Source: an uncultured Spirochaetota bacterium (lineage in GTDB: Bacteria > Spirochaetota > Brevinematia > Brevinematales > JAOACQ01). Taken from it: a stretch of 64,000 nucleotides of DNA. The position numbers and the translations under genes were made by a program. The notes under the pieces were generated by a model. That model worked only from the letters and a program-made list of their open reading frames with translations, was not told the origin of the DNA and did no database searches. The stretch spans positions 480,001 through 544,000 of the forward strand of contig CAWIGG010000002.1 of assembly GCA_963835575.1 (NCBI GenBank), given 5' to 3'. Below, in pieces: positions 14,047-27,384 of this stretch; positions within the stretch are counted from its first letter, which is position 1, and the number at the start of each line of letters is the position of its first letter.

Positions 14047-14889
14047 TCAGTTATTTATAAAGGAAGGCACAAAACTGCGGAAATATTTTTCAGCCTGTGC
14101 CAGATCCAGGCCGAAACGGCCGATTTCCTCTTTGCTGTCATCTCCATGAAAATCGCTTCCCGCTGTCAGAATAAGGCTCTTTGAAAAGGTCTCTTCAATC
14201 TTCCTGGATAGATCATGCGAGATTTTCGGGTGTTTATATTCAATTCCAGACAGACCGGAAGAGATCATTTTATCGAGATAATTCCAGTTTTTTGAAGTAT
14301 ATAAAAAAGTCGGATGAGCGGCCACGGCATTTCCGTTATTTTCTTTGATGGTGCGGATGATATCATATGTGTTGACTTCTCTTCTCGGAATATGGCAGGG
14401 GCGCCCGCCTCCCAGGTATTTATCAAAAACCTCATGCGTGTCCGCCGCGTAACCCTGCCGCACCATTTCCCGCGCTATATGCATCCTTCCGACAGGGGCT
14501 TTGTTATTTTTGATAATATTATTGATGTCTAAATTTATGTTGTATTTCTTCAGGCAGTCCAGGATGCGCATCGCCCTTCCGAGGCGCGATTCCTTGAACT
14601 GCCGGGTGAGACCGTCCATTTTTTTATAGGAAAAATCAGAAAAATACCCCAGGATATGAAGTTCCCCCGTCTCTTCAAGAAAAGTCGAGAATTCGCATCC
14701 GGCGATAAAAAAAAGGCCGGTTTTTTTTCTCTGAAAAACTTTAATGACGGATTCAATCCCCTCAAAAGAGTCATGGTCGGTGAGGGCGAACCCGGGAAGG
14801 CCCTTCTGTATGGCCATAGAGGTTATGTCTTCCGGGCTGTAAAGCCCGTCCGAAAAATTTGAGTGTATATGCAAATCGACTAATTTCAA
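14047..14889 (-). CDS. PHP-domain phosphoesterase (TrpH-like)
   Basis: DLHIHSNFSDG, ALTDHD, AHP, GSDFHG. Confidence 0.92.
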   Translation of the reverse strand: MKLVDLHIHSNFSDGLYSPEDITSMAIQKGLPGFALTDHDSFEGIESVIKVFQRKKTGLFFIAGCEFSTFLEETGELHILGYFSDFSYKKMDGLTRQFKESRLGRAMRILDCLKKYNINLDINNIIKNNKAPVGRMHIAREMVRQGYAADTHEVFDKYLGGGRPCHIPRREVNTYDIIRTIKENNGNAVAAHPTFLYTSKNWNYLDKMISSGLSGIEYKHPKISHDLSRKIEETFSKSLILTAGSDFHGDDSKEEIGRFGLDLAQAEKYFRSFVPSFINN

Positions 14890-14933
14890 AGAAAAGCTCC
14901 TTTATTAACAATTTAATTCAAAAAGTCTTTTAA

Positions 14934-15064
14934 GTCTTCCGCTAAGCCACGCGAATACACGCTAATGATAATTATTTCAATTATAAATATATATTTTTGA
15001 AATTATATAAAAACATCAATTTTTAAATTATTATAATATCTTATTCGCGTCCATTAGCGGATTA
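14934..15064. repeat. Family A inverted arm pair; right arm overlaps the 3' end of the DUF1667 gene
   Basis: gtcttccgctaagccacgcgaatacacgctaat (14934-14966) and attcgcgtccattagcggatta (15043-15064). Confidence 0.75.
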
Positions 15065-15438
15065 CTCGTTCCTTTAGATTGACGATTTGTTCCTGATGTT
15101 GCTATCAGATTGACGCCTTTCATGATAAAATCGTGTATAAGTATCTGTCCCTCCGATACAGGCGCTTTAAAGGCTTTTTCCCTGATAATCGCCATTGCTT
15201 CAAACAGCTTTTTTTGGGGGATCGGCCTGTCGGTCCGGACGCTCGCAAGGCTTTCAATCCCGCCGGTTACTTTAACGGTCGATGTCAGCGTTCTCTGCGG
15301 ATTGTCCATTTCTTCGCGGGCATACTCAGCGCCTTTTTTGCAGACGGCGTTTTGGACTTCATAATGCCCGTTTTTTTGCTTTATAATTGTCATCAGGCAG
15401 CTTTTCGGGCAGAGTATGCAGGTGAGGGATGTTTTCAT
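15031..15438 (-). CDS. DUF1667 CxxC protein (usual third gene of GlpA-like oxidoreductase operons)
   Basis: TCILCPKSC, CKKGAEYA..E..NPQRTLTSTV; start at ATG 15438 with AAGGA upstream. Confidence 0.88.
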   Translation of the reverse strand: MKTSLTCILCPKSCLMTIIKQKNGHYEVQNAVCKKGAEYAREEMDNPQRTLTSTVKVTGGIESLASVRTDRPIPQKKLFEAMAIIREKAFKAPVSEGQILIHDFIMKGVNLIATSGTNRQSKGTSNPLMDANKIL

Positions 15439-15892
15439 AAAGATTCCTTTATATTTACCACAAAGACACAAAGAGCACGAAGAAACACGAAGATTGTATT
15501 AGCGGCATTTATTGTAATATAAAAAGCCATTTATTAACATACCTTTCTTATAATATCCGATTGTTCACGCGGATTAGACGGATGCCTCGACTACGATCGG
15601 CACAAGTTCCGCGGATTTGCGCGGATTGGGATTGGATTTTAATCGGAATTCTAATATTCATAATTAATTCCATTCATCTTTTCAAAATTAACATTAAAAA
15701 TATTGTTTAACTTTTTCCCATATTGAAAAATAATTGTATCTTTTCTTGTATTAATATAAATTAATCCGCTAGTCAGATTTTCATCATATAAAGATTTAAT
15801 AATTTCACCCTTATTATTAATGAATAATGCCCCCCCACCTCTTTTATCTTCTCTAATAAAACTATATAAAAAAATATTAAAATTTAATATAT

Positions 15893-17658
15893 GGCCCTAC
15901 TGCAAAAACAATCCTACCGATTCATGTACAAAAGTTGCATAACTCGTTATAATATATGCACATGAATCAGAGAGAGGTCAAAATGTTCAAGCTGAATCAG
16001 AGACATATAGAACAGGATTTATATCCGGTAAGATATGAAATGAACCAGGAAATGAGAGAAAGTTTAAATGAAAGCTGGGCCGGGCTTTTTTACCAGAAAG
16101 TTTTCTCAAAAATAAATGAGCGGAAGTTTGCTCCACTATATGACCCAAAACTTGGTAGGAGTAATTTCCCGGTCAACATATTAGCCGGGCTGGAAATCAT
16201 GAAAGAGCTATTCTCTCTGACCGATGAACAGTTGTTTGAGCGGTATCGATATGATTTATCGTTTCGATACGCGCTGGGATTGGAAGACATCAACGCGCAG
16301 CAGATGTCGATCAGGACGTTATACTATTTTCGTGCCGCTGTGGCGGAGAATCAGGACGGGCTTTTTGACGTTATATTTGATGAGTTTCGGGATCTTTTAA
16401 TTGGAGAGGTCGGGATCAAAACCGGACTGCAGAGGACAGATTCTGTAATGATTGGGGCCAATATCAAGCGGCTGAATCGGGTTATGCTGTTTCATAAAGT
16501 GTTGTCCAATATGGCGGAAGATGTTTCCAATGCTGGATTTTCCTTAAGTGAAAGATGTAAGGATTTTCTAAAACAAAATGAGGACGGATTCAGTTATCGA
16601 CTGAAAAAGGAGAATTACGAATCGAAAACGGTGGAAATTGGCGAGGAAATATTCGGGCTGATTACAGAGAACGTGTTTCACAATAAAGTCAGGAAACAAA
16701 AGAGTTTCCGGCAGGCAATGAGACTTTTGCGGGAACAATGCCGGATAGAAAAAGAAGGCAAGGTGACGCTGAAGCTGCCGCGGGAAATCAAAGCCTCATC
16801 GATGCAGTCGCCGGTGGACGAAGACGCGACCTACCGGGAGAAGCGGGGAAAACAGTATGTCGGGTATAAGGTGAACGCGGTTGAAACCTGTGACCCTCAA
16901 AATCCGATGCAGGTGATTACCAGCATAGAAACCGCATCGAATAATGCTGACGATGGGGATTTATTCCGCAGGCAACTATCTAATTTAAAAAAGGAAACGA
17001 ATATTGAAACAGCGATAAGCGATGGCGGTTATAATTCTGAAGACCTTCGGAATGAGAGCGGCGAAGACGTTCAACTGGTAATGAGCGCGATACGCGGCGT
17101 CGATCTGGAAGGGATAAAAAACAAAGCGAAACTTTCTGAGTATACAGACCCAAAAACCGGCAAATATGGGATGTGTCCGGCGGGAGAAATCCCGAATAGC
17201 ATTATTGAAAATGAAGATGGTTCCGTGGTATTGAATTTTGATGTAAAAAAATGTGCCGCCTGCGATAAGAAAGAAAATTGTCTGGCCTGTGTCGGCAAGA
17301 AGCAAAGTCGGCTGGTAATAGACGCCAAAAGGGAATGGATGGATGAATTTTTGGAATTGATATGTATGGATGCAGGAAAATTTCTGATGGGACTACGCCC
17401 TGCCGTAGAAGGATTGATGAGTTTATTGAAACCAAAGTATTTGAGCGGCAGGATTTTGTTCCGTGGTCTGGTAAAAGTCAAAACCCGCATGCTTTTAAGG
17501 GGAATCGGGATTAATTTCAAGAGATATCGGGGCTATTTGGCTGATAAATCGAAGGCTGCCGCCGACATGGCCTTTGATTTCTTAATCTTTTTCCTTGTGC
17601 GGTTGAAAATTTGCCGGAATATCCCCTATGCTTGTGTTTGAATTTTTTCAGCAGGGCC
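15893..17658 (+). mobile_element. IS1182/IS5-like insertion sequence
   Basis: IRs GGCCCTACTGCAAAAA and (reverse) GGCCCTGCTGAAAAAA, 14/16 match; duplication ATATAT at 15887-15892 and 17659-17664. Confidence 0.88.
15983..17641 (+). CDS. DDE transposase (IS1182/IS5-like, with Cys cluster)
   Basis: GRSNFPV, RTDS, SPVDEDATYREK, GYK, SDGGY, CPAG, CxxC, RPAVEG. Confidence 0.88.
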   Translation: MFKLNQRHIEQDLYPVRYEMNQEMRESLNESWAGLFYQKVFSKINERKFAPLYDPKLGRSNFPVNILAGLEIMKELFSLTDEQLFERYRYDLSFRYALGLEDINAQQMSIRTLYYFRAAVAENQDGLFDVIFDEFRDLLIGEVGIKTGLQRTDSVMIGANIKRLNRVMLFHKVLSNMAEDVSNAGFSLSERCKDFLKQNEDGFSYRLKKENYESKTVEIGEEIFGLITENVFHNKVRKQKSFRQAMRLLREQCRIEKEGKVTLKLPREIKASSMQSPVDEDATYREKRGKQYVGYKVNAVETCDPQNPMQVITSIETASNNADDGDLFRRQLSNLKKETNIETAISDGGYNSEDLRNESGEDVQLVMSAIRGVDLEGIKNKAKLSEYTDPKTGKYGMCPAGEIPNSIIENEDGSVVLNFDVKKCAACDKKENCLACVGKKQSRLVIDAKREWMDEFLELICMDAGKFLMGLRPAVEGLMSLLKPKYLSGRILFRGLVKVKTRMLLRGIGINFKRYRGYLADKSKAAADMAFDFLIFFLVRLKICRNIPYACV

Positions 17659-18274
17659 ATATATACTTTGCAAAAATACTTTTACTGAATTTTGCATTTT
17701 GATCAGGATTTTTAATATTTTCTTTTATATTTATTTTATTTAAATTTAAATTGATAAATTCAACAGGCATATGTATAGAAGTCTGATTATTATAATTATT
17801 TATTATATTTGTGATATTCAACCCGCTTTCCAAAATTAGTTTCTTTTCTATTTTCAGTTCTATGTTTTCAACTTTTAAAACATACTTCCTACCAATAAAG
17901 AAATTGGTGCCTGTATAATCAGGATATAGTATATATGTGTCCTTTCCCTCGATCATAGGCGGTAAGTTATTAATGAGGATTCCATTGTTGCCTACCCCAA
18001 TCTTAATAACCAGATCCCCATTATTATTCATTGAAATTGTTTTAGTTTCATTTAATGAATCCTCTAGGGCTCTTTTGAATGCAAATGTGCCACTAAATTC
18101 AAACTCCTTTATCTTTGCCAGATTGATATCCCTGGTATAAAGGGTTATTTTTATTATTTCCCGGAATTCCCCTTTTTTTTCCACAAATTCCACATATTTT
18201 ATGTAATCATCCCAGGTCAGGCTGTTATACTGGCCTTCCCAGTCCTTTTTTATTAGACTTCATATATTCATAAA

Positions 18275-19558
18275 GGGCGGTTTGAAAAACCCACGTATCA
18301 TATACAAATAGTATATAAAAACATATAATCATAGTCAAAGAAAACAGAGGTAAGGCTATGACAAAAATTAAGCGGAAAGACCGTAACTTGTTTGAATATC
18401 AGGAGCGGATGGAAAAGCTAAGCGGCGTAAAAACACCGCTGGATAAGCTTAACAGGGTTGTAGACTTTGAGATGTTCCGGCCGCTGTTAACAGAGATTTT
18501 GGCGCCGAAAGAGCAGAAGGCGCCGGGCGGAGCGCCACATTATGACTATGTTTTCATGTTCAAGATACTGATATTCCAGAGGTATTACAATCTTTCCGAT
18601 GAGCAAGCGGAATTTCAGATCAATGACAGGTTATCCGTTCAGCGATATCTTGGGATAACACTTTCGGACAAAGTTCCGGACTACAGTAAAATCTGGGAAT
18701 TCAAGGAAAAACTGATGAAAGCGAAAGCAATAGAGAAACTTTTTAAAATATTCGATGAGAATCTTGAGAATAAAGGTGTGATAGGGAAAGCGGGCGTTAT
18801 GGTAGACGCAAGTTTTGTGGATGTTCCCCGGCAGAGGAACAGCCGCGAAGAAAACAAGAAAATAAAAGAAGGCGAGGTTCCGGAAGATTGGAAAGATAAT
18901 ACGCATAAGCTTTCCCATAAAGACACGGATGCGCGCTGGATGACCAAGAATAAAGAGAGGCATTACGGATACAAAAACCATACAAAGGTTGATGTGAAGT
19001 CAAAACTTATTCGTTCTTATGTCACGACAGATGCGAGCGTTCACGATTCACAGGTAGTTGAACCTCTATTGAATGAGAAAGACAAAGGGAAGCCGTTTTA
19101 CGCGGACAGCGCATATGTTGGCCCAACGGTAGCAGGAATATTAGAAAAATTTGAGATGAAAAACCGGATTCACGAAAAAGGATACAGAAATAAGCCATTG
19201 ACGGAGAAGCAGAAAGAAAAAAATAGAAGAAAGAGCCGCATCCGAGTTCGTGTTGAGCATGTTTTTGGTTTTGTTGAAAATAGTATGAACGGCAGTACAA
19301 TACGATCGATAGGAAAAGAAAGGGCAGAGAGCCAAATCGGGCTGATGAATCTGGTTTATAATTTAGCACGGTATGTTGTGGTAAAAGGTCGAATTGCGTC
19401 TTGTGCGGCTTAAAATACAGAAGATATGGATAATATTGCCCGTGTTTGGCTGAATTTTGGTAATAGAAACAGTTTTTAACCTGTTGGCAGAAATATTTTT
19501 AAAATATTTTCTATTATCAGGGAAGTGTTGATAAATTAGGCGGTTTTTAAAACCGCCC
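18275..19558 (+). mobile_element. IS5-family insertion sequence
   Basis: IRs GGGCGGTTTGAAAAACC and (reverse) GGGCGGTTTTAAAAACC, 16/17 match; duplication TAAA at 18271-18274 and 19559-19562. Confidence 0.92.
18358..19413 (+). CDS. IS5-family transposase
   Basis: YNLSDEQAE, VDASFV, DTDARW, YGYKNH, SVHDS, ADSAY, RVRVEHVFG. Confidence 0.95.
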   Translation: MTKIKRKDRNLFEYQERMEKLSGVKTPLDKLNRVVDFEMFRPLLTEILAPKEQKAPGGAPHYDYVFMFKILIFQRYYNLSDEQAEFQINDRLSVQRYLGITLSDKVPDYSKIWEFKEKLMKAKAIEKLFKIFDENLENKGVIGKAGVMVDASFVDVPRQRNSREENKKIKEGEVPEDWKDNTHKLSHKDTDARWMTKNKERHYGYKNHTKVDVKSKLIRSYVTTDASVHDSQVVEPLLNEKDKGKPFYADSAYVGPTVAGILEKFEMKNRIHEKGYRNKPLTEKQKEKNRRKSRIRVRVEHVFGFVENSMNGSTIRSIGKERAESQIGLMNLVYNLARYVVVKGRIASCAA

Positions 19559-20209
19559 TAAAGATAATCGTTATATCCTCTGGGTATGCCGATATCAATA
19601 ACTGCTATCATTCCGAAGAAATTGAAAATAGTTTTGCGCTCAAAAATGTAAGATGTATTGCTGATATTTACAAATGGTATTAAAGGCTTCATATTCCGGA
19701 TAAACTCAGAACAATTCGTCTCTTTTCCATATTGTTTAAAGTATTTATCCTCACTTGAATAATAATTAAGCACCTGAAGCGCATTATCAAGACTTCCGTT
19801 TATTAAATCCACACTGCTATAATCATCCGGTAATATATCATATTCAATAGGTCTTCCAGTAATCTTGTTTGTCATTTTAGAATTAGGATTGTAAACATAT
19901 TCTTTTGCTTCTTTGTAGTTGAATCCCTTTGCTGTCAATTTAGTTTTATCAATACTTTTATTCTCAATCCACCCGCTCTTTCCTGAAGAACTGGCAACAA
20001 AAAATCCATCGCCGTTCCCTTTCAGCACACGGAACGTATAGCCAGGTTCAATATAATCGATTTTTGTTTTTTTAACATATATCCCCTGTATATCCTCATT
20101 ATAGGCGTATAGTTCTATCCGCTTATTTTCTTTGAAAACATTATCCTTCTGTTTTAGAAATTCCTCTGGTTTCCATTCGGCCAGGGTGTTGGTACTGACC
20201 CATCCTGAC

Positions 20210-21134
20210 GGAGACGCACCACCGTGCGTCTCTACGGTGATTTTTGCCCATTCGCCTTTGGTTTCCGTTACGGACACACGGTCGTATTTCATCAACTGGT
20301 CAATGTAACCTTTCACGTTCGTGTCGCCCGGCACGGCCAGGACGGCGGGGGCGTTCGAGTCTGAGGCTGACGGCAGGTCTTTATAAATTGGGACATTATT
20401 TGTAATACAGTACATATCCGTACCGGCGTGCGCCGTTGAAAATGCCGCCGTCAGGAGGAGGAATAGGGGGAGGAATAAGGGTTTATTCATAATCATATCC
20501 TCGTGGTTTATTCCATTGTAGAGACGTCCGTTCGGATGTCTCTACACATTATTGATCATCGCCGAACATTTCATCCTTTGCCCAATTCTGGGGGTTATCC
20601 GCAATGTATTTGCGGACCTGATGCAATTCTTTTTCATTACGGATCACACGGTCATGGTAACGGGATTGCCAGATTGTTTCACCTGGTGTATTCCTGGATT
20701 CATTGATCCGTTTCGTCGCCGCGGATTTAAAACCGGCGATAAATGACGATATTGATTTGGGTTTCCGGTTTGCCGCGCCATGTAGAGACGCACGGCCGTG
20801 CGTCTCTACATGCACCGTCGATTCATAATCAACAATTCCGACAACCGCATGAATATGGTTCGGCATAATGATGTTTGAATCACATTCTAATTCTTTGCGT
20901 ATTTTAAATGATTTTAACCATTCATCATGGACAATTTTCCCTATATCCGAAAATACCATTTCCCCTTCCTTAATATCACCAAACAACCATTCCCTGTTTT
21001 TCACGCAAATGGTTATAAAATAATATCCGGGTCCTGAATAATCCCAACCCGGCCGCCTGTTCGATTCAATTCGATATTTATTATTAAATAATGCCATATT
21101 TAATTTACAGGAGACGCACGCCGTGCGTCTCTAC
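20210..21134. repeat. Four GTAG-type REP palindromes (20210-20235, 20518-20545, 20779-20812, 21110-21134)
   Basis: Consensus GTAGAGACGCACGG.CGTGCGTCTC(TAC); 20779-20812 is a perfect 34-bp palindrome. Confidence 0.9.
20549..21097 (-). CDS. REP-associated tyrosine transposase (RAYT, Y1 HUH)
   Basis: R.PGWDYS.PGYYFITIC, MPNHIH (HUH), WQSRYHDRVIR, YIADNP; flanked by GTAG palindromes. Confidence 0.92.
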   Translation of the reverse strand: MALFNNKYRIESNRRPGWDYSGPGYYFITICVKNREWLFGDIKEGEMVFSDIGKIVHDEWLKSFKIRKELECDSNIIMPNHIHAVVGIVDYESTVHVETHGRASLHGAANRKPKSISSFIAGFKSAATKRINESRNTPGETIWQSRYHDRVIRNEKELHQVRKYIADNPQNWAKDEMFGDDQ

Positions 21135-21440
21135 GTTTCTTTTCCCCCGTTTCCGTGTTTGTGGTCTTCGTCCCTCTCCGTGCCCTCCGCAATCTCTGTG
21201 GTTTATTTCTAACGTACTATTATAAAGAGGCATCGAATGCCTGACAATAAACCATCGCCAATTCACCAGACACCCAAAATTTACCCAGTTCCCCGCACCC
21301 TGGTTCCTCTTCGTGCCTTCCCGTCTTGTTAATCCCATTCGCGTTTATTCGCGTGCATTCGCGGGCAACCCTTCGTGGTCCTTGGTGCTCTTGGTGTCTT
21401 TGTGTTTAAAATTTATCTAATCTATTACCATTAGGCAATC

Positions 21441-22673
21441 TTATTTATCCAATAAATCCACTGTCAGATTTTTCAAACCCATCCCCGCCGGATTAAAATC
21501 AAACCGAATCATCTCGGGTGGATTCACCCTGGCCAGCCGGATTTCCTTCAGCATTTCCTTATCGGATGACAGACGCAGTATCTTGTCTTTTCCCGGTTCT
21601 TTCACACGCATAGAGAACATGACCTCCCTTTCGCCGCTCACAAAAGAAGGCAGGACATAGCGGATGCCTCCGCTCCACGTTACTGGTTTTGAGGCTTTGA
21701 CGCTTTTTCCCAGAATATATTCCGCGGCTGCCTTTCCAACCGCTTCCGCTTCCCATGAAACATTGTCCACAAGGTCGTGGACATGGAGCACATTACCGCA
21801 GGCGAAAATTCCCGGTATTGAGGTTTGGCCCGTTTCGTCGACACTGGGGCCGAGCGTGAAGGGATTGATCGCAGCGCCGGCGTTCCTGGAAATCTCGTTT
21901 TCGGGAATAAGCCCGACAGAGAGAAGGACTGTATCGCAGTCAATCTTTTCGGCGCTGCCGGCTATGGGATTCCCGTTTTTACCCAGCCTGGCTATTGTGA
22001 CGGATTGAAGCCTGCCGGTCCCTTCGGTTTTTACGATCGTATGGCCGAGGAGGAGCGGTATATTGAAATCGTCGAGGCACTGCCTCAGATTTCTCGGCAG
22101 GCCCCCGGCAAAGGGAAGCTTTTCGACAACGACCTTTACCTTTGCCCCTTCCAGAGTGAGTCTCCGCGCCATGATAAGACCGATATCGCCTGAGCCGAGG
22201 ATGACGATATTCCTGCCGGGCATGATGTTCTGAAGGTTGATCAGCCTCTGCGCCACGCCGGCCGTATAGATGCCGGCCGGCCTCGAGCCCGGTATCGCCA
22301 GGGCGCCGAAGGCCCTTTCCCGGCAGCCCATTGCGAGGACCACGGCCTCCGCTTTTATTTTTTCCATTCCATGCCGGCTGTATATTGACAGCGTCCTGTC
22401 TTCCGTCAGCTTCATGACGCTCGAGTTCAGAAGCACCGGTATCCCGGTTTTTTTTATTTCACCGCTGTAAAGGCTTGAATATTCCGGTCCTGTTAAAGAT
22501 TTATTGAATTTCAAAAGGCCGAAGCCGTCGTGGATGCACTGGGGCAGGATTCCGCCCAGCCGGCTGTCCCTTTCGATGAGGACGATGTCTTCGATGCCGT
22601 TCTCTTTAAGCGAGAGCGCCGCAGCCATTCCGGCCGGCCCTCCGCCGATAACCGCCGCCTGTTTATAGACCAT
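21441..22673 (-). CDS. NAD(P)/FAD-dependent oxidoreductase (partner of GlpA-like dehydrogenase)
   Basis: GGGPAGMAAA, GGILPQCIHDGFG, MGCRER, GSGDIGLIMARR, CGNVLHVHDLVD. Confidence 0.9.
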   Translation of the reverse strand: MVYKQAAVIGGGPAGMAAALSLKENGIEDIVLIERDSRLGGILPQCIHDGFGLLKFNKSLTGPEYSSLYSGEIKKTGIPVLLNSSVMKLTEDRTLSIYSRHGMEKIKAEAVVLAMGCRERAFGALAIPGSRPAGIYTAGVAQRLINLQNIMPGRNIVILGSGDIGLIMARRLTLEGAKVKVVVEKLPFAGGLPRNLRQCLDDFNIPLLLGHTIVKTEGTGRLQSVTIARLGKNGNPIAGSAEKIDCDTVLLSVGLIPENEISRNAGAAINPFTLGPSVDETGQTSIPGIFACGNVLHVHDLVDNVSWEAEAVGKAAAEYILGKSVKASKPVTWSGGIRYVLPSFVSGEREVMFSMRVKEPGKDKILRLSSDKEMLKEIRLARVNPPEMIRFDFNPAGMGLKNLTVDLLDK

Positions 22674-22674
22674 A

Positions 22675-24135
22675 TTACTTGACCCTCCCCGTGAAGAGAT
22701 GAGAGCCTTTGCCTGCGAAGCTCATTTTGCCGGGAGGGATGCCGTACCTGTTTTCCAGGAGAGAGACAATTCTTGTGGTGCAGAAGCCGCCCTGACAGCG
22801 GCCGGTTGTGGCGCGGGTCCGGTTTTTTATGGACTTGAGTGTTGTGGCTCCGAACGGGTTTTCCAGGGCGGACAAGATATCCCGTTTTGTGACATGCTCG
22901 CATCGGCAGATCACTTCCCCCGAATCCGGATCTTCTTTAATTAAACGGGACTGTTCTTCCTCATTCATGGAAGATAAGGGTCTTCTCAGTTTATGAATAT
23001 GACAGGAAGTTTTCTTTTTGAAAGTTTCTTTCCGTGTCACTAAACCCGCCGTCATTTCGGCGATGGCCGGAGCGCTGGTCAGACCGGGCGATTCTATGCC
23101 GATGAGGTGGAACAGGTTTTCGTTTTTGTCTGATTCTTTTATAACGAAATCGTCAAAGCCGCCCTTTTTCTTTCCAGCCAGTTTCGGCCGCATTCCGGAA
23201 AAGGAGCGGATGACGGCGCTTTTTTCAAGAAGGGGCAGGAGCGATTCTGCCTCTTTCCAGAGCTTTTTCATGACCGGCGACGTTGTGGAGTAGTCCAGGC
23301 GCATTCTGACATATTCGGAGCTCGGGCCGATGAGGATATTGCCGTCGACGGTTGTCGTGAGGTGGACGCCCAGCCCCCCCTCGCCCGGCCTGGGCACGGG
23401 ATAGACAGGTCTTCCCAGAAGGGCGGATGTGTTTTTATCCAGGACAAAGTATTCGCCCCGGCATGGATAAATACGCCAGCCTGTATCGCCGGCAAGGGCG
23501 GCGATTTTATCGGAATTAAGCCCGGCGCAGTTGATGACATATTTTGATTCAAATGAAGGCTTCTTTTCATGATCGACTGAAATTTCATAAAGCCCGCGCC
23601 GTCGTTTGATTTTCGTGACCGGCGATTCAAAGAAAAAGGACGTCCCGTTCAGATGAGCGTTTTCCGCCAGTGCGATCGTGAGCTGTATGGGATTAGTGAC
23701 CGCCGTCCATGGCGAATAAAGCGCCGCTATTCCGGAAACGTTCGGCTCCAGCTCTTTTATTCTTCTGCTGTCGATGATCTCGAGGCCCAGAACCCCGTTT
23801 TTCTCGCCGGCCTCTTTGAGTTTCAAAAGGCCGGGCATATCGCTTTCAGACAGGGCCGTGACGAGCTTGCCTGTTTTTTTATAGAGGACCCCTAGTTCGC
23901 CGCAGAAGCTTTCAAATTTCCTGCAGCTTTCGGTGCAGAGCCCGGCTTTAAGTGTTCCCGGCTCGCAGTTGAAGCCGGCATGCACGACCCCGCTGTTGCG
24001 GGAGCTGGTGGCGTAACCGGCATCGCATTCTTTCTCGAGCACGGCGATGCTGGCTTCATATCTGGAAAGTTCCCCGGCTATGGCGCAGCCTATGACGCCT
24101 GCGCCTATGATGATGATGTCATATTGGTGCGGCAA
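22675..24135 (-). CDS. FAD-dependent oxidoreductase with C-terminal BFD-like [2Fe-2S] domain (glycerol-3-phosphate dehydrogenase-like)
   Basis: GAGVIG, SSRNSGVVHAG, RGEY, GIESPGLTSAPA, ICRCEHVT...GRCQGGFC. Confidence 0.88.
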   Translation of the reverse strand: MPHQYDIIIIGAGVIGCAIAGELSRYEASIAVLEKECDAGYATSSRNSGVVHAGFNCEPGTLKAGLCTESCRKFESFCGELGVLYKKTGKLVTALSESDMPGLLKLKEAGEKNGVLGLEIIDSRRIKELEPNVSGIAALYSPWTAVTNPIQLTIALAENAHLNGTSFFFESPVTKIKRRRGLYEISVDHEKKPSFESKYVINCAGLNSDKIAALAGDTGWRIYPCRGEYFVLDKNTSALLGRPVYPVPRPGEGGLGVHLTTTVDGNILIGPSSEYVRMRLDYSTTSPVMKKLWKEAESLLPLLEKSAVIRSFSGMRPKLAGKKKGGFDDFVIKESDKNENLFHLIGIESPGLTSAPAIAEMTAGLVTRKETFKKKTSCHIHKLRRPLSSMNEEEQSRLIKEDPDSGEVICRCEHVTKRDILSALENPFGATTLKSIKNRTRATTGRCQGGFCTTRIVSLLENRYGIPPGKMSFAGKGSHLFTGRVK

Positions 24136-24240
24136 GAGAATATCCTTCAGTAGATTTTATCAGTATTTTACTGAAGGCATCAGGATTAATCAAGAAAGTA
24201 AATATACTATGAATGGTATAAAAGGACAAAGAGGTGCGGA

Positions 24241-24456: not shown

Positions 24457-24510
24457 CCCAATAAATTAATCAAGAATCGGGAAAAACGGACAGGCATTGA
24501 AAGATAAAAG

Positions 24511-24582: not shown

Positions 24583-27384
24583 ATGGAAAGATCATACGAT
24601 TTTCTGGCGATCGAAAAAAAATGGAGGGAATACTGGGATAAAGAGAAAACTTTTAAAGTGACCGAGGATGCCGGGTTCCCCGAGGATAAAAGGCTCTATG
24701 TCCTGGATATGTTTCCCTATCCCTCCGGTTCCGGCCTCCACGTCGGCCATCCGGAAGGGTATACCGCGACGGATATCTACACGCGTTTTAAGAAAATGAA
24801 CGGTTTCAATGTTCTCCATCCGATGGGCTTCGACTCCTTCGGCCTTCCGGCGGAGAATTACGCCATCCAGACGGGGAAGCATCCCGCGGAAATAACTTAT
24901 CAAAATATAGACCACTTCAGAGTCCAGATCAAGACTCTGGGTTTCTGCTATGACTGGGACAGGGAAGTCGCGACAAGCGACGCTGAATACTATAAATGGA
25001 CGCAGTGGATTTTCCTCCAGCTCTTTAATAAAGGGCTGGCCTACGAAGCGGAAATGCCGATCAACTGGTGCCCCCAGTGCGGTACGGGCCTGGCCAATGA
25101 GGAAGTCAAGGACGGAAAGTGCGACCGCTGCGGCACTCCTATAGAAAGGAAGAGGATCCGCCAGTGGGTGCTCAAGATCACGGCCTACGCTGAAAGGCTT
25201 TTAAAGGACCTGGATCTTCTCGACTGGAACGAGTCGATTAAGCTGATGCAGGAGAACTGGATCGGAAAAAGCGAGGGCGCGGAAGTCAATTTCAGGGTAG
25301 ACGGGAGCGGCGATCTGATCCGTGTTTATACCACACGGCCGGACACTCTTTTCGGCGCCACATATATGGTCCTCGCGCCGGAACACCCTCTTGTAGAAAA
25401 GATAACGGCGCCGGACGGCGCCGGCGATGTGGAAAAGTATATCGATAAAACAGTCGGCAAATCGGAGCTTCAGAGGACGGAGCTTAATAAGGAAAAAACA
25501 GGCGTCTTTACCGGCGCCTACGCGATAAACCCTGTGAACGGAAATAAAATCCCCATCTGGATCGCGGATTACGTTCTGTGGGGATACGGCACCGGGGCCA
25601 TTATGGCCGTGCCGGCGCATGACGAACGCGACTTTGAGTTCGCGAATAAATTCGACTTGCCGATTATACGGGTCATTCACAAAAAGGATGCCGATTATCT
25701 GAGCTTTATAATGGGGGCCGACTCTATCAGTGAAGATGATTTGAAGAATTCCGGGGCGGAAATACTTGAAAAGAAAAATGGCGGGTTATACTGGGTGAAA
25801 ATCCGGAAGGAAAAACTGGCTGTATTTAAAGATCTTATCCGGAATCTGTTGAAACCGGGTTTCTTTAATGAAATCGTCGGAGAAGAAATATGGTTTTTAT
25901 TTAAAACCAGAGACGGCATCAATAAGGAATATATTTTAAATCTTGAAAATGAGAAGGAAATCAATCAATTGGCCAAGCAGTTTAATAAGGGCATTCCGTC
26001 GCAGAAGACTGTCTGGACATGGCTGGCGCAGAATTCTTTTTATTTCAGCAGTATCATTCACCCTGATTCCGGCGTTATGGAAAATTCAGGTCAGTATGAT
26101 AAAATGGATTCGGAAAAATTCAAGGAAATAATTACAAAATGGCTTGAAGATAAAAAAATAGGCCAGAAGCAGGTTAATTACAAACTGCGCGACTGGGTTT
26201 TCTCGCGCCAGCGCTACTGGGGCGAACCGATTCCCGTCGTCCATTGCGAAAAGGACGGGATCGTTCCGCTTGACGAGAAAGACCTGCCTCTGATCCTGCC
26301 GGACGTCAAGAGCTATAAGCCGACGGGAACGGGCGAATCCCCGCTGGCCGCGATCACGGAGTGGGTGAACACAAAGTGTCCGAAGTGCGGAGGAAAAGCC
26401 AAGCGCGAGACAAACACGATGCCCCAATGGGCTGGAAGCTGCTGGTATTATATCCGGTTTACCGACCCGAATAACGATAAAGCCCCGGCCGAAAGGAAAA
26501 ATATAGATTACTGGCTGCCTGTCGACCTGTACATCGGCGGAGCGGAGCATGCCGTCCTGCACCTTCTGTACGCCCGGTTCTGGCATAAATTTCTCTATGA
26601 TATCGGCGTTGTCAATTCGCCCGAGCCGTTTATGAAGCTCCGGAACCAGGGAATGATTCTCGGCGAGAACGGCGATAAGATGTCGAAATCCAGGGGAAAT
26701 GTGGTGAACCCGGACAACGTTGTTCAGGAATACGGAGCCGACACGCTGAGGATTTATGAAATGTTCCTCGGGCCGCTGGCCGCCGATAAGCCATGGAACA
26801 CCCAGAGCATCATAGGCATCAAGCGCTTCCTGGACAAGGTCTGGCGCCTTTTCGAGAAGCCTCTGGATGAAAAGGCCGCTGTTCCCGATGAGCTGAATAG
26901 GCTGCGGCATAAAACAGTCAAGATCGTGACAGAAAAGATTGATTCCCTCGAATTCAACACAGCCGTCAGCCAGATGATGATTTTCTTGAACGCGCTTCAG
27001 AAGGAAGAGAAACTGAATAAAGATATGATGAGGGATTTTATTAAAATCCTCCATCCCTTTGCGCCTTTTGTAACGGAGGAAATGTGGGAAATGCTGGGTG
27101 AAAAGCCGTCGGTGCTGTTCTCAAAATGGCCGGTATATGATGAAATGCTGATAATAGAAGAAGTATCTGAAGTAGCTATCCAAGAAAATGGAAAGTTAAG
27201 AGGAACGATTCCGATGCCAAAAGATACAACTCAAGAAGATATGATTAATATAGTAAAAAATAATGAAAAAATGCAAAATATTTTTAAGGATAAAAATATC
27301 GTTAAGTATATACCTATACAAGGAAAAGTTGTTAATGTTGTTACGGTAACAAGATCTGTAACGTTTAATGTTGATAAAAAATAG
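24583..27384 (+). CDS. leuS: Leucine--tRNA ligase with an inserted domain
   Basis: [46 protein letters not shown]. Confidence 0.97.

Follow-up and report, generated by a model that had tools for sequence, protein, structure and literature searches.

An fngABC-like operon of an uncultured Spirochaetota bacterium split by DNA with inverted word-array arms at both ends

Miniature inverted-repeat transposable elements (MITEs) and the integron mobilization unit (IMU), in the part of their review (PMC3184786) available to us, have short inverted ends, occur as gene-less copies in spacers and operons, form in-frame fusions with neighboring genes and can have their ends around foreign genes. These features are shared with the locus described here, an fngABC-like operon of an uncultured Spirochaetota bacterium whose second and third genes are separated by 5,954 bp of arm-bounded DNA, within a 64,000-nt stretch of contig CAWIGG010000002.1 (positions 480,001 to 544,000; assembly GCA_963835575.1), hereafter the window. 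The extra DNA encloses a gene of the REP-associated tyrosine transposase (RAYT) type. According to the accessible text of PMC6006769, TnpA(Y1) subclass 2.4 typically holds repetitive extragenic palindromic (REP) sequences within the gene, and the corresponding portion of PMC8266576 makes TnpA(REP) activity dependent on a palindrome with a conserved motif before it. FngABC is described in the available part of PMC13689815 as a ferredoxin- and NAD-dependent, bifurcating glycerol-3-phosphate oxidoreductase, its complexes being called at a gene spacing of 300 bp. Our analyses show that the arms at both ends of the extra DNA belong to a genome-wide family of short-word arrays, that such arms bracket some foreign inserts in this lineage and that the contents of this insert accumulated in at least three steps. 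We give an even chance to a history in which a resident arm shell at the fngB-fngC junction took in a cargo of RAYT and SH3-domain genes together with a promoter stepwise, with insertion sequence (IS) elements arriving later.

The split operon and its insert

The three operon genes lie on the minus strand with intact reading frames, and the outer arms lie between the second and the third. Bare positions are window coordinates, and C2 to C6 denote contigs of this genome (G000).

22675..24135, minus strand: fngA-like FAD oxidoreductase of 486 aa carrying a BFD [2Fe-2S] domain; frame intact, PF01266 and PF04324 both above cut-off
21441..22673, minus strand: fngB-like NAD(P)/FAD oxidoreductase, 410 aa, intact (PF07992)
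21371..21408, minus strand: right outer arm of the long A type, lying 32 nt past the fngB stop
15455..15492, plus strand: left outer arm of the long A type (four CACNAAG words), separated from the fngC start by 16 nt
15031..15438, minus strand: fngC-like gene (DUF1667), 135 aa (Pfam PF07892, 4e-28)

The spacing between fngA and fngB is 1 nt and that between fngB and fngC is 6,002 nt, of which 48 nt (16 + 32 nt) remain outside the arms. The fngB-fngC gap could be measured in 45 of 54 homologous loci and runs from -14 to +27 nt in 41 of them, as expected from the statement in the initial annotation that such genes are normally contiguous; the remaining four are gaps of 132, 156 and 311 nt (the last in a second copy of the operon in this genome) and one apparent frameshift. 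Four homologous loci have no DUF1667 match, and loci lacking a fngB or DUF1667 partner are mostly at contig ends. Because the gap elsewhere normally falls between -14 and +27 nt, the 5,954 bp most likely represent an insertion. The initial annotation had called the operon GlpA-like; its three oxidoreductase and DUF1667 genes are confirmed, but FngABC-like is the more precise label. The GlpA model TIGR03377 scores 120.9 bits against a cut-off of 552.8 and the third subunit is a DUF1667 protein, which places the trio outside GlpABC. The available part of PMC13689815 gives FngABC the same DAO+BFD, FAD/NAD(P) and DUF1667 subunits in the same order as here, with the difference that our fngC lies 6 kb off fngB and thus outside that paper's spacing criterion. 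Judged by domain make-up, the trio is likely a glycerol-phosphate enzyme operon that fits FngABC better than GlpABC. The final ten codons and stop of the DUF1667 gene are themselves a C-type arm (15029-15063) read in frame.

The outer arms are inverted and identical at 32 of 38 positions, which agrees with the first description of them. Each matches 28 genome sites at 27/38 or better, the best match in a shuffled genome being 25/38; they are not chance features. Both are near-consensus (48 bits each) and neither has a local partner. Because A arms usually form closed inward pairs and these two have no partner nearby, they likely pair with each other. The following features lie between them.

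21297..21365, minus strand: degenerate A-like array and C-type arm (CGCGAAT three times; array 21333-21365)
21213..21290, minus strand: recurrent linker with a sigma-70-like site
21157..21204, minus strand: inward-facing E-type word array (CACAGAG/CACGGAG)
21108..21134, minus strand: GTAG REP hairpin, 10 nt ahead of the start of the RAYT gene
20549..21097, minus strand: RAYT/TnpA(REP) gene, 182 aa, with an internal in-frame REP at 20779-20812 (PF01797, over cut-off)
20517..20546, minus strand: REP hairpin directly downstream of the RAYT gene
20208..20235, minus strand: GTAG REP hairpin in the SH3 loop, read in frame as VETHGGASP, at a GC step from 0.54 to 0.39
19563..20496, minus strand: SH3 cargo gene, 5' piece, with a signal-like N-terminus and an SH3_3 domain
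18275..19558, plus strand: IS5-family insertion sequence of 1,284 bp with its transposase at 18358-19413 and a TAAA target duplication
17664..18274, minus strand: SH3 cargo gene, middle piece, matching residues 410-540 of homolog P0001
15892..17659, plus strand: IS1182-like insertion sequence of 1,768 bp with its transposase at 15956-17641 and a TATA target duplication (4 bp)
15651..15891, minus strand: SH3 cargo gene, 3' piece, GC 0.20, matching P0001 residues 609-685
15493..15640, plus strand: AT-rich linker ending in TATAAT, then a B-type array (CRCGGAT words; array 15557-15640)

The further inward-facing arms announced in the initial annotation are thus present as the arrays 15557-15640, 21157-21204 and 21333-21365, and its RAYT with REPs as the Y1/RAYT gene and GTAG hairpins listed above. 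Its AT-rich secreted-protein gene exists as well but represents only the 5' part of a gene that is now in three pieces, and two multicopy IS elements, 3,060 of the 5,954 bp, had been overlooked. Both belong to the ordinary DDE type, with 4-bp duplications around short terminal repeats, and there is nothing unusual about them here: the IS1182-like element has 12 full copies in the genome (99.9-100% identical; the IS1182 model is the best for its transposase, at 146 bits against a cut-off of 270) and the IS5-family element 22 (99.3-100% identical; NF033581, 269 bits, cut-off 140). The three SH3 pieces align to successive stretches of intact homologs of 599-705 aa, the gene spanning about 595 codons from 20496 to 15651. 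With the IS elements removed, the frame of the middle and 3' pieces is continuous and a single one-base frameshift, a mutation or an assembly error, remains in a T run near 18246-18251, so that from its sequence the gene appears to have been nearly intact before the IS insertions, which are the later events. Because the two IS elements interrupt one SH3 gene within an older insert of 2,894 bp, the contents have accumulated in three steps or more. The older insert reads, in order, A arm, C arm, linker, E array, REP, RAYT with its internal REP, REP, SH3 gene, B array, linker, A arm. The B array terminates a short distance from the cargo gene's stop, and on the other side GGTTGCC connects the C-type arm to the right outer arm; the E-type array is missing from the paralogous RAYT locus C2:456247. 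The sigma-70-like site (21247-21219), a candidate promoter by its 11/12 consensus match only, is directed at the RAYT gene, the cargo gene and fngC.

The arms could in principle act in RNA. Open reading frame (ORF)-bearing 23S rRNA intervening sequences likewise enclose a passenger gene between inverted arms capable of pairing in the transcript; here the host is a protein-coding operon, the cargo is kilobase-sized and there is no evidence of processing. By such a route the arms would pair and the intervening RNA would be cut or looped out, joining the fngB stop to the fngC ribosome site, which would concern how the insert is tolerated and not how it arrived. The arm duplex on the transcribed strand reaches -46 kcal/mol, and 18 of 453 operon-like junctions carry arms. 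However, the opposite strand pairs as well (-45.6 kcal/mol), of the six mismatches only one turns into G-U in the transcript, the loop would measure 2.8-5.9 kb and fngC could more simply be expressed from the strong internal promoter-like site, and we find this explanation barely credible. The region 14800-21600 has no Rfam match.

Word-array arms in the genome and in relatives

A strict word scan of the genome detects 361 arms, compared with 18 and 15 in shuffled sequences, and in a scored scan 342 of 388 arms fall between genes, with 84% of the genome coding; the outer arms are members of this family. A-type neighbors at most 500 nt apart face inward in 15 of 17 cases, and among the 23 inward A pairs that can be formed in the genome the focal pair has both the widest gap and the highest identity. 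The end modules of the insert recur, A-linker-B at many loci and A-C at further loci, and shells of the form A-C ... B-A without cargo occur at C2:732423-732777, C5:74732-75134 and C6:178957-179571. A fourth cargo-free shell, C4:992824-993081, has A ends around a C pair, and the genes at this position overlap by 4 nt in a congener. At C5:111622-112419, three tandem units combine arms with the recurrent linker that is also seen at 21213-21290 and upstream of the RAYT paralog.

Inverted ends with 32 of 38 identical positions are what MITEs, the IMU and composite transposons would have, but the target-site duplication of such elements is absent. The ends differ from IS-type terminal repeats in being arrays of 7-letter words in two unlike modules, and the IMU, as far as the accessible part of its review describes it, has two identical whole elements where this locus has one open shell. 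The associated gene differs too, being a GxxExxY nuclease and not a DDE transposase. Eight of the nine GxxExxY genes of this genome have an arm on at least one side by automatic scan and all nine have arms on both sides by eye, and in congener G002 both of the genes in the compared part (of five in that genome) are arm-bracketed. Inward arrays of 7-letter words around GxxExxY genes, together with gene-less copies, thus define a family to which the outer arms belong, and the arms likely go with this small nuclease gene family rather than with the enclosed RAYT. Their co-location suggests that GxxExxY could be the enzyme acting on the arms. One GxxExxY gene, C2:747052-747333, has A-type arms, the downstream one split by a REP-like palindrome. 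We found no description of the word arms in the open-access literature, the field of our search, with subscription journals and supplements outside it; two of the three papers that use the term 'GxxExxY' are, by title and abstract start, not about repeats.

Comparison with G002 covers 2.4 of 3.7 Mb, with about a third of the junctions outside, at a median protein identity of 68% and with spacers too distant to align. Within it, 796 junctions are syntenic, 69 with arms here and 727 without. Of the 69 arm-bearing junctions, 63 exceed their G002 counterparts by 100 nt or more, with a median of 381 nt compared with 4 nt for arm-less ones. For 118 junctions expanded by at least 450 nt we asked for two-word arms within 160 nt of the gene ends: inward arms stand at both ends of five, at one end of 23 and at neither end of 90, and the corresponding counts for outward arms are 0, 2 and 116. 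The junction at C4:710381-714829 measures 4,447 bp here, and its genes overlap by 4 nt in G002; C4:380195-385213 and C3:96790-98127, and by eye C4:308207-311205 and C4:466097-467149, are further arm-bracketed inserts with compact congener sites. The cargo of such inserts is mostly AT-rich, often with later IS copies. The initial annotation held that arms delimit mobilized cargo and that this was the clearest case. Arms do stand at both ends of the extra DNA and the arrangement recurs opposite compact congener sites, but mobilization as a unit is not supported: half of the DNA is later IS, there is no target duplication, and the genomes searched gave neither a second copy nor a nucleotide-level empty site. 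Nor is the case the clearest, since other sites have real empty-site comparators and the fngB-fngC site has none. The check it proposed, an empty site in relatives, yielded compact comparator sites for other inserts but no close relative with the operon for this one.

Arms and cargo could also be independent of each other, an AT-rich island having entered by other means and arm elements having settled in the two new spacers it created, after which their partners decayed. All four wide spacers around the operon contain arms, 23 of the 118 expanded junctions are armed at one end only and the similarity between partner arms is not significant, as this account would have it. However, both outer arms are near-consensus and still without a local partner, the end modules and their order equal those of the cargo-free shells, and terminal arms are almost always inward (28 against 2), which together make independent settlement quite improbable to us.

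The second fngABC-like operon, C2:1957300-1961250 (L026), has arm modules upstream and in both junctions. Its orthologs, 65-68% identical, are contiguous in four congeners; in these four genomes PHP and leuS are divergent neighbors, 140-1,868 nt apart. A promoter-like motif that lies 39-41 nt upstream of PHP in the four congeners now stands before fngA at 24185. Because the motif has this new position, the split operon must have gone in between it and PHP. Two copies of the motif exist (24136-24200 and 24464-24474), one on each side of a C/F arm pair. A 9.5-kb arm-bounded island comprising the whole operon was considered and rejected, the operon's entry point being between PHP and the motif and not at arms. 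Two further observations concern this neighborhood: leuS (24583-27384) encodes 933 aa, compared with open frames of 816-842 aa in five relatives, and is unaligned around residues 370-493, and the PHP-leuS spacer of L072 (G004) contains a small inserted gene flanked by a different 7-letter tandem repeat.

The RAYT and the SH3 protein family

The RAYT translation carries HIH and WQSRYHD, corresponding to the HUH-Y1 core and the W-Q-x-R guide-recognition region, and scores 66.5 bits in two stretches against NCBIfam NF047646 (cut-off 80). With GTAG hairpins on its flanks and a REP inside its own gene, it looks like a RAYT of subclass 2.4 as characterized in the accessible text on REPtron/RAYT-REPIN systems (PMC6006769). 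The initial annotation suggested a link between this RAYT and the arms, and in its strongest form the RAYT would mobilize the arms or the arm-bounded insert. In this genome an arm is detected in the 200-300 nt upstream of two of the five RAYT-like loci; a third locus (C2:257021) has arm-like arrays on both sides, a degenerate one recognized by eye on one side and a B end 1.3 kb away on the other. The outer arms, however, are not REPs: each strand folds at 0 kcal/mol and is without GTAG, while folding energies of the four REPs are -8.8 to -17.4 kcal/mol, and it is a palindrome with its preceding motif that TnpA(REP) is reported to need. In other genomes, the loci of RAYT relatives contain a REP motif in 11 of 13 and 5 of 10 cases and profile-detected arms in 0 of 13 and 0 of 10, and in this genome a RAYT lies inside one of the 23 A pairs. 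With arms unlike REPs, absent from all 23 RAYT-relative loci and flanking GxxExxY genes instead, the proposed link is not upheld, and mobilization by the RAYT seems to us very improbable. We take the RAYT to be a frequent passenger. Three REP and RAYT observations stand apart: a RAYT-like sequence lies within a 1,207-aa ORF at C5:408849-412472, another overlaps the stop of a 1,041-aa ORF at C4:784587-788230, and C4:1034563-1035442 has three GTAG REPs on the same strand, 215-660 nt apart and possibly within a gene. Both of these ORFs may be restriction-modification genes.

Homologs of the SH3 cargo protein are present in three of the 34 other genomes searched in the order, and a separate count gives 16 clusters with E below 1e-10. 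The homologs combine a host-like 5' part common to paralogs with an AT-rich, variable remainder. The protein itself has no NCBIfam family and no Atlas match; its structure model has a pLDDT of 77, and its Foldseek matches have low TM scores, the confident ones being SH3b-bearing NlpC/P60 proteins over about 140 columns. The middle piece as sole query found no longer homolog. One loop of the protein is short in P0003, P0012 and P0014, contains the GTAG REP here, an A arm in L075 (8535-8572) and an A arm with a REP-like palindrome in L076 (7271-7300). REP-like peptides probably occupy the same loop of P0001/P0002 and P0011. These repeats lie near the transition from the constant 5' part to the variable, AT-rich 3' part. 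In G005 two SH3 paralogs are 98-100% identical up to the in-frame loop arm, where identity falls to about 60%, and about 30-70% identical beyond it. The loop is not the sole breakpoint, because in G013 and G017 the drop in identity falls some 300 nt later. The in-frame repeats within one SH3 loop and the empty-site comparison of arms are new here.

These homologs bear on the chief rival explanation, in which arms, RAYT and SH3 gene (2.9 kb) came in one step as a mobile unit resembling a composite transposon or the IMU, moved in trans by an enzyme cognate to the arms, with the IS elements later. An arm closes the SH3 gene 51-1017 nt past its stop in five of the six loci with downstream DNA, compared with 10 of 147 background windows, a count to be read with the paralogy of these loci in three genomes, the greater spacer content of gene ends relative to random windows and four further loci at contig ends in mind. 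A variably cut gene start, putatively M23-like by its motif, often lies between the SH3 homolog and the closing arm. Upstream of the RAYT paralog C2:456247, C arm, linker and REP are retained as in this insert, which implies that arm and cargo went together through at least one event, and the near-integrity of the SH3 gene before the IS insertions is also in keeping with a single arrival. On the other hand, no second copy of the arm-RAYT-SH3 unit was found in this genome, in the 34 genomes of the order or in 300 of the phylum; any target duplication comprises no more than 4-5 AT-rich bases; and a RAYT was found by tblastn near none of ten SH3 loci, which are paralogs in three genomes. We therefore regard arrival in one step as a real but minority possibility.

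Origin of the insert

The stepwise history to which we give an even chance would start with the insertion of a repeat shell, with the two A arms as its outer ends, into the fngB-fngC junction. The center of the shell would then have admitted the promoter-linker, the RAYT with its REPs and the SH3 gene, 2,894 bp in total, and the two IS elements would later have broken the SH3 gene. The GxxExxY nuclease may spread the arms and open them to cargo, the RAYT would be a passenger, and the internal promoter would keep fngC expressed, so that the split could be tolerated. The outer arms would mark the true ends of the insertion.

Several observations weigh against this history. A close relative with this operon was found neither in a DUF1667 search of 60 relatives nor in a fngB search of metagenome contigs, the best homologs reaching at most 61% identity, and sequencing run X1 gave small exact pieces and no contig bridging any junction. 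Five of 27 DUF1667 matches in relatives have no fngB inside 1.5 kb, and the entry of the operon itself involved no arms at the junction. Matches of 4-5 AT-rich nucleotides at shifting offsets are all that surrounds the insert in place of a target duplication. The insert holds no GxxExxY gene, and the family is without demonstrated activity. Among 13 pairs of long A arms, similarity between partners does not significantly exceed that of shuffled partners (88 of 1000). Finally, 90 of the 118 expanded junctions lack a terminal arm and 54 of 78 inserts of at least 1 kb have no arm at all; because most expansions and large inserts are arm-less, arms are not needed for cargo in this lineage.

A broader proposal, which we rate as rather unlikely, is that the arms are the ends of an undescribed gene-capture system, driven by the GxxExxY nuclease, that opens operon junctions and fills them with multi-kilobase foreign cargo and a promoter, and that the repeats serve as in-frame joints swapping a variable C-terminal part onto the constant N-terminus of the secreted SH3 family. 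The fngB-fngC site is a poor test case, being riddled with IS elements and lacking an empty site in a close relative; better candidates are C4:710381-714829, C4:308207-311205 and C4:466097-467149. For FngABC, complex calling based on spacing (300 bp) will miss intact complexes split by such inserts. If arms do delimit and admit kilobase-sized DNA in operons, they would constitute an acquisition route outside the IS, integron and REPIN systems, and the uncharacterized GxxExxY family would gain a testable substrate.

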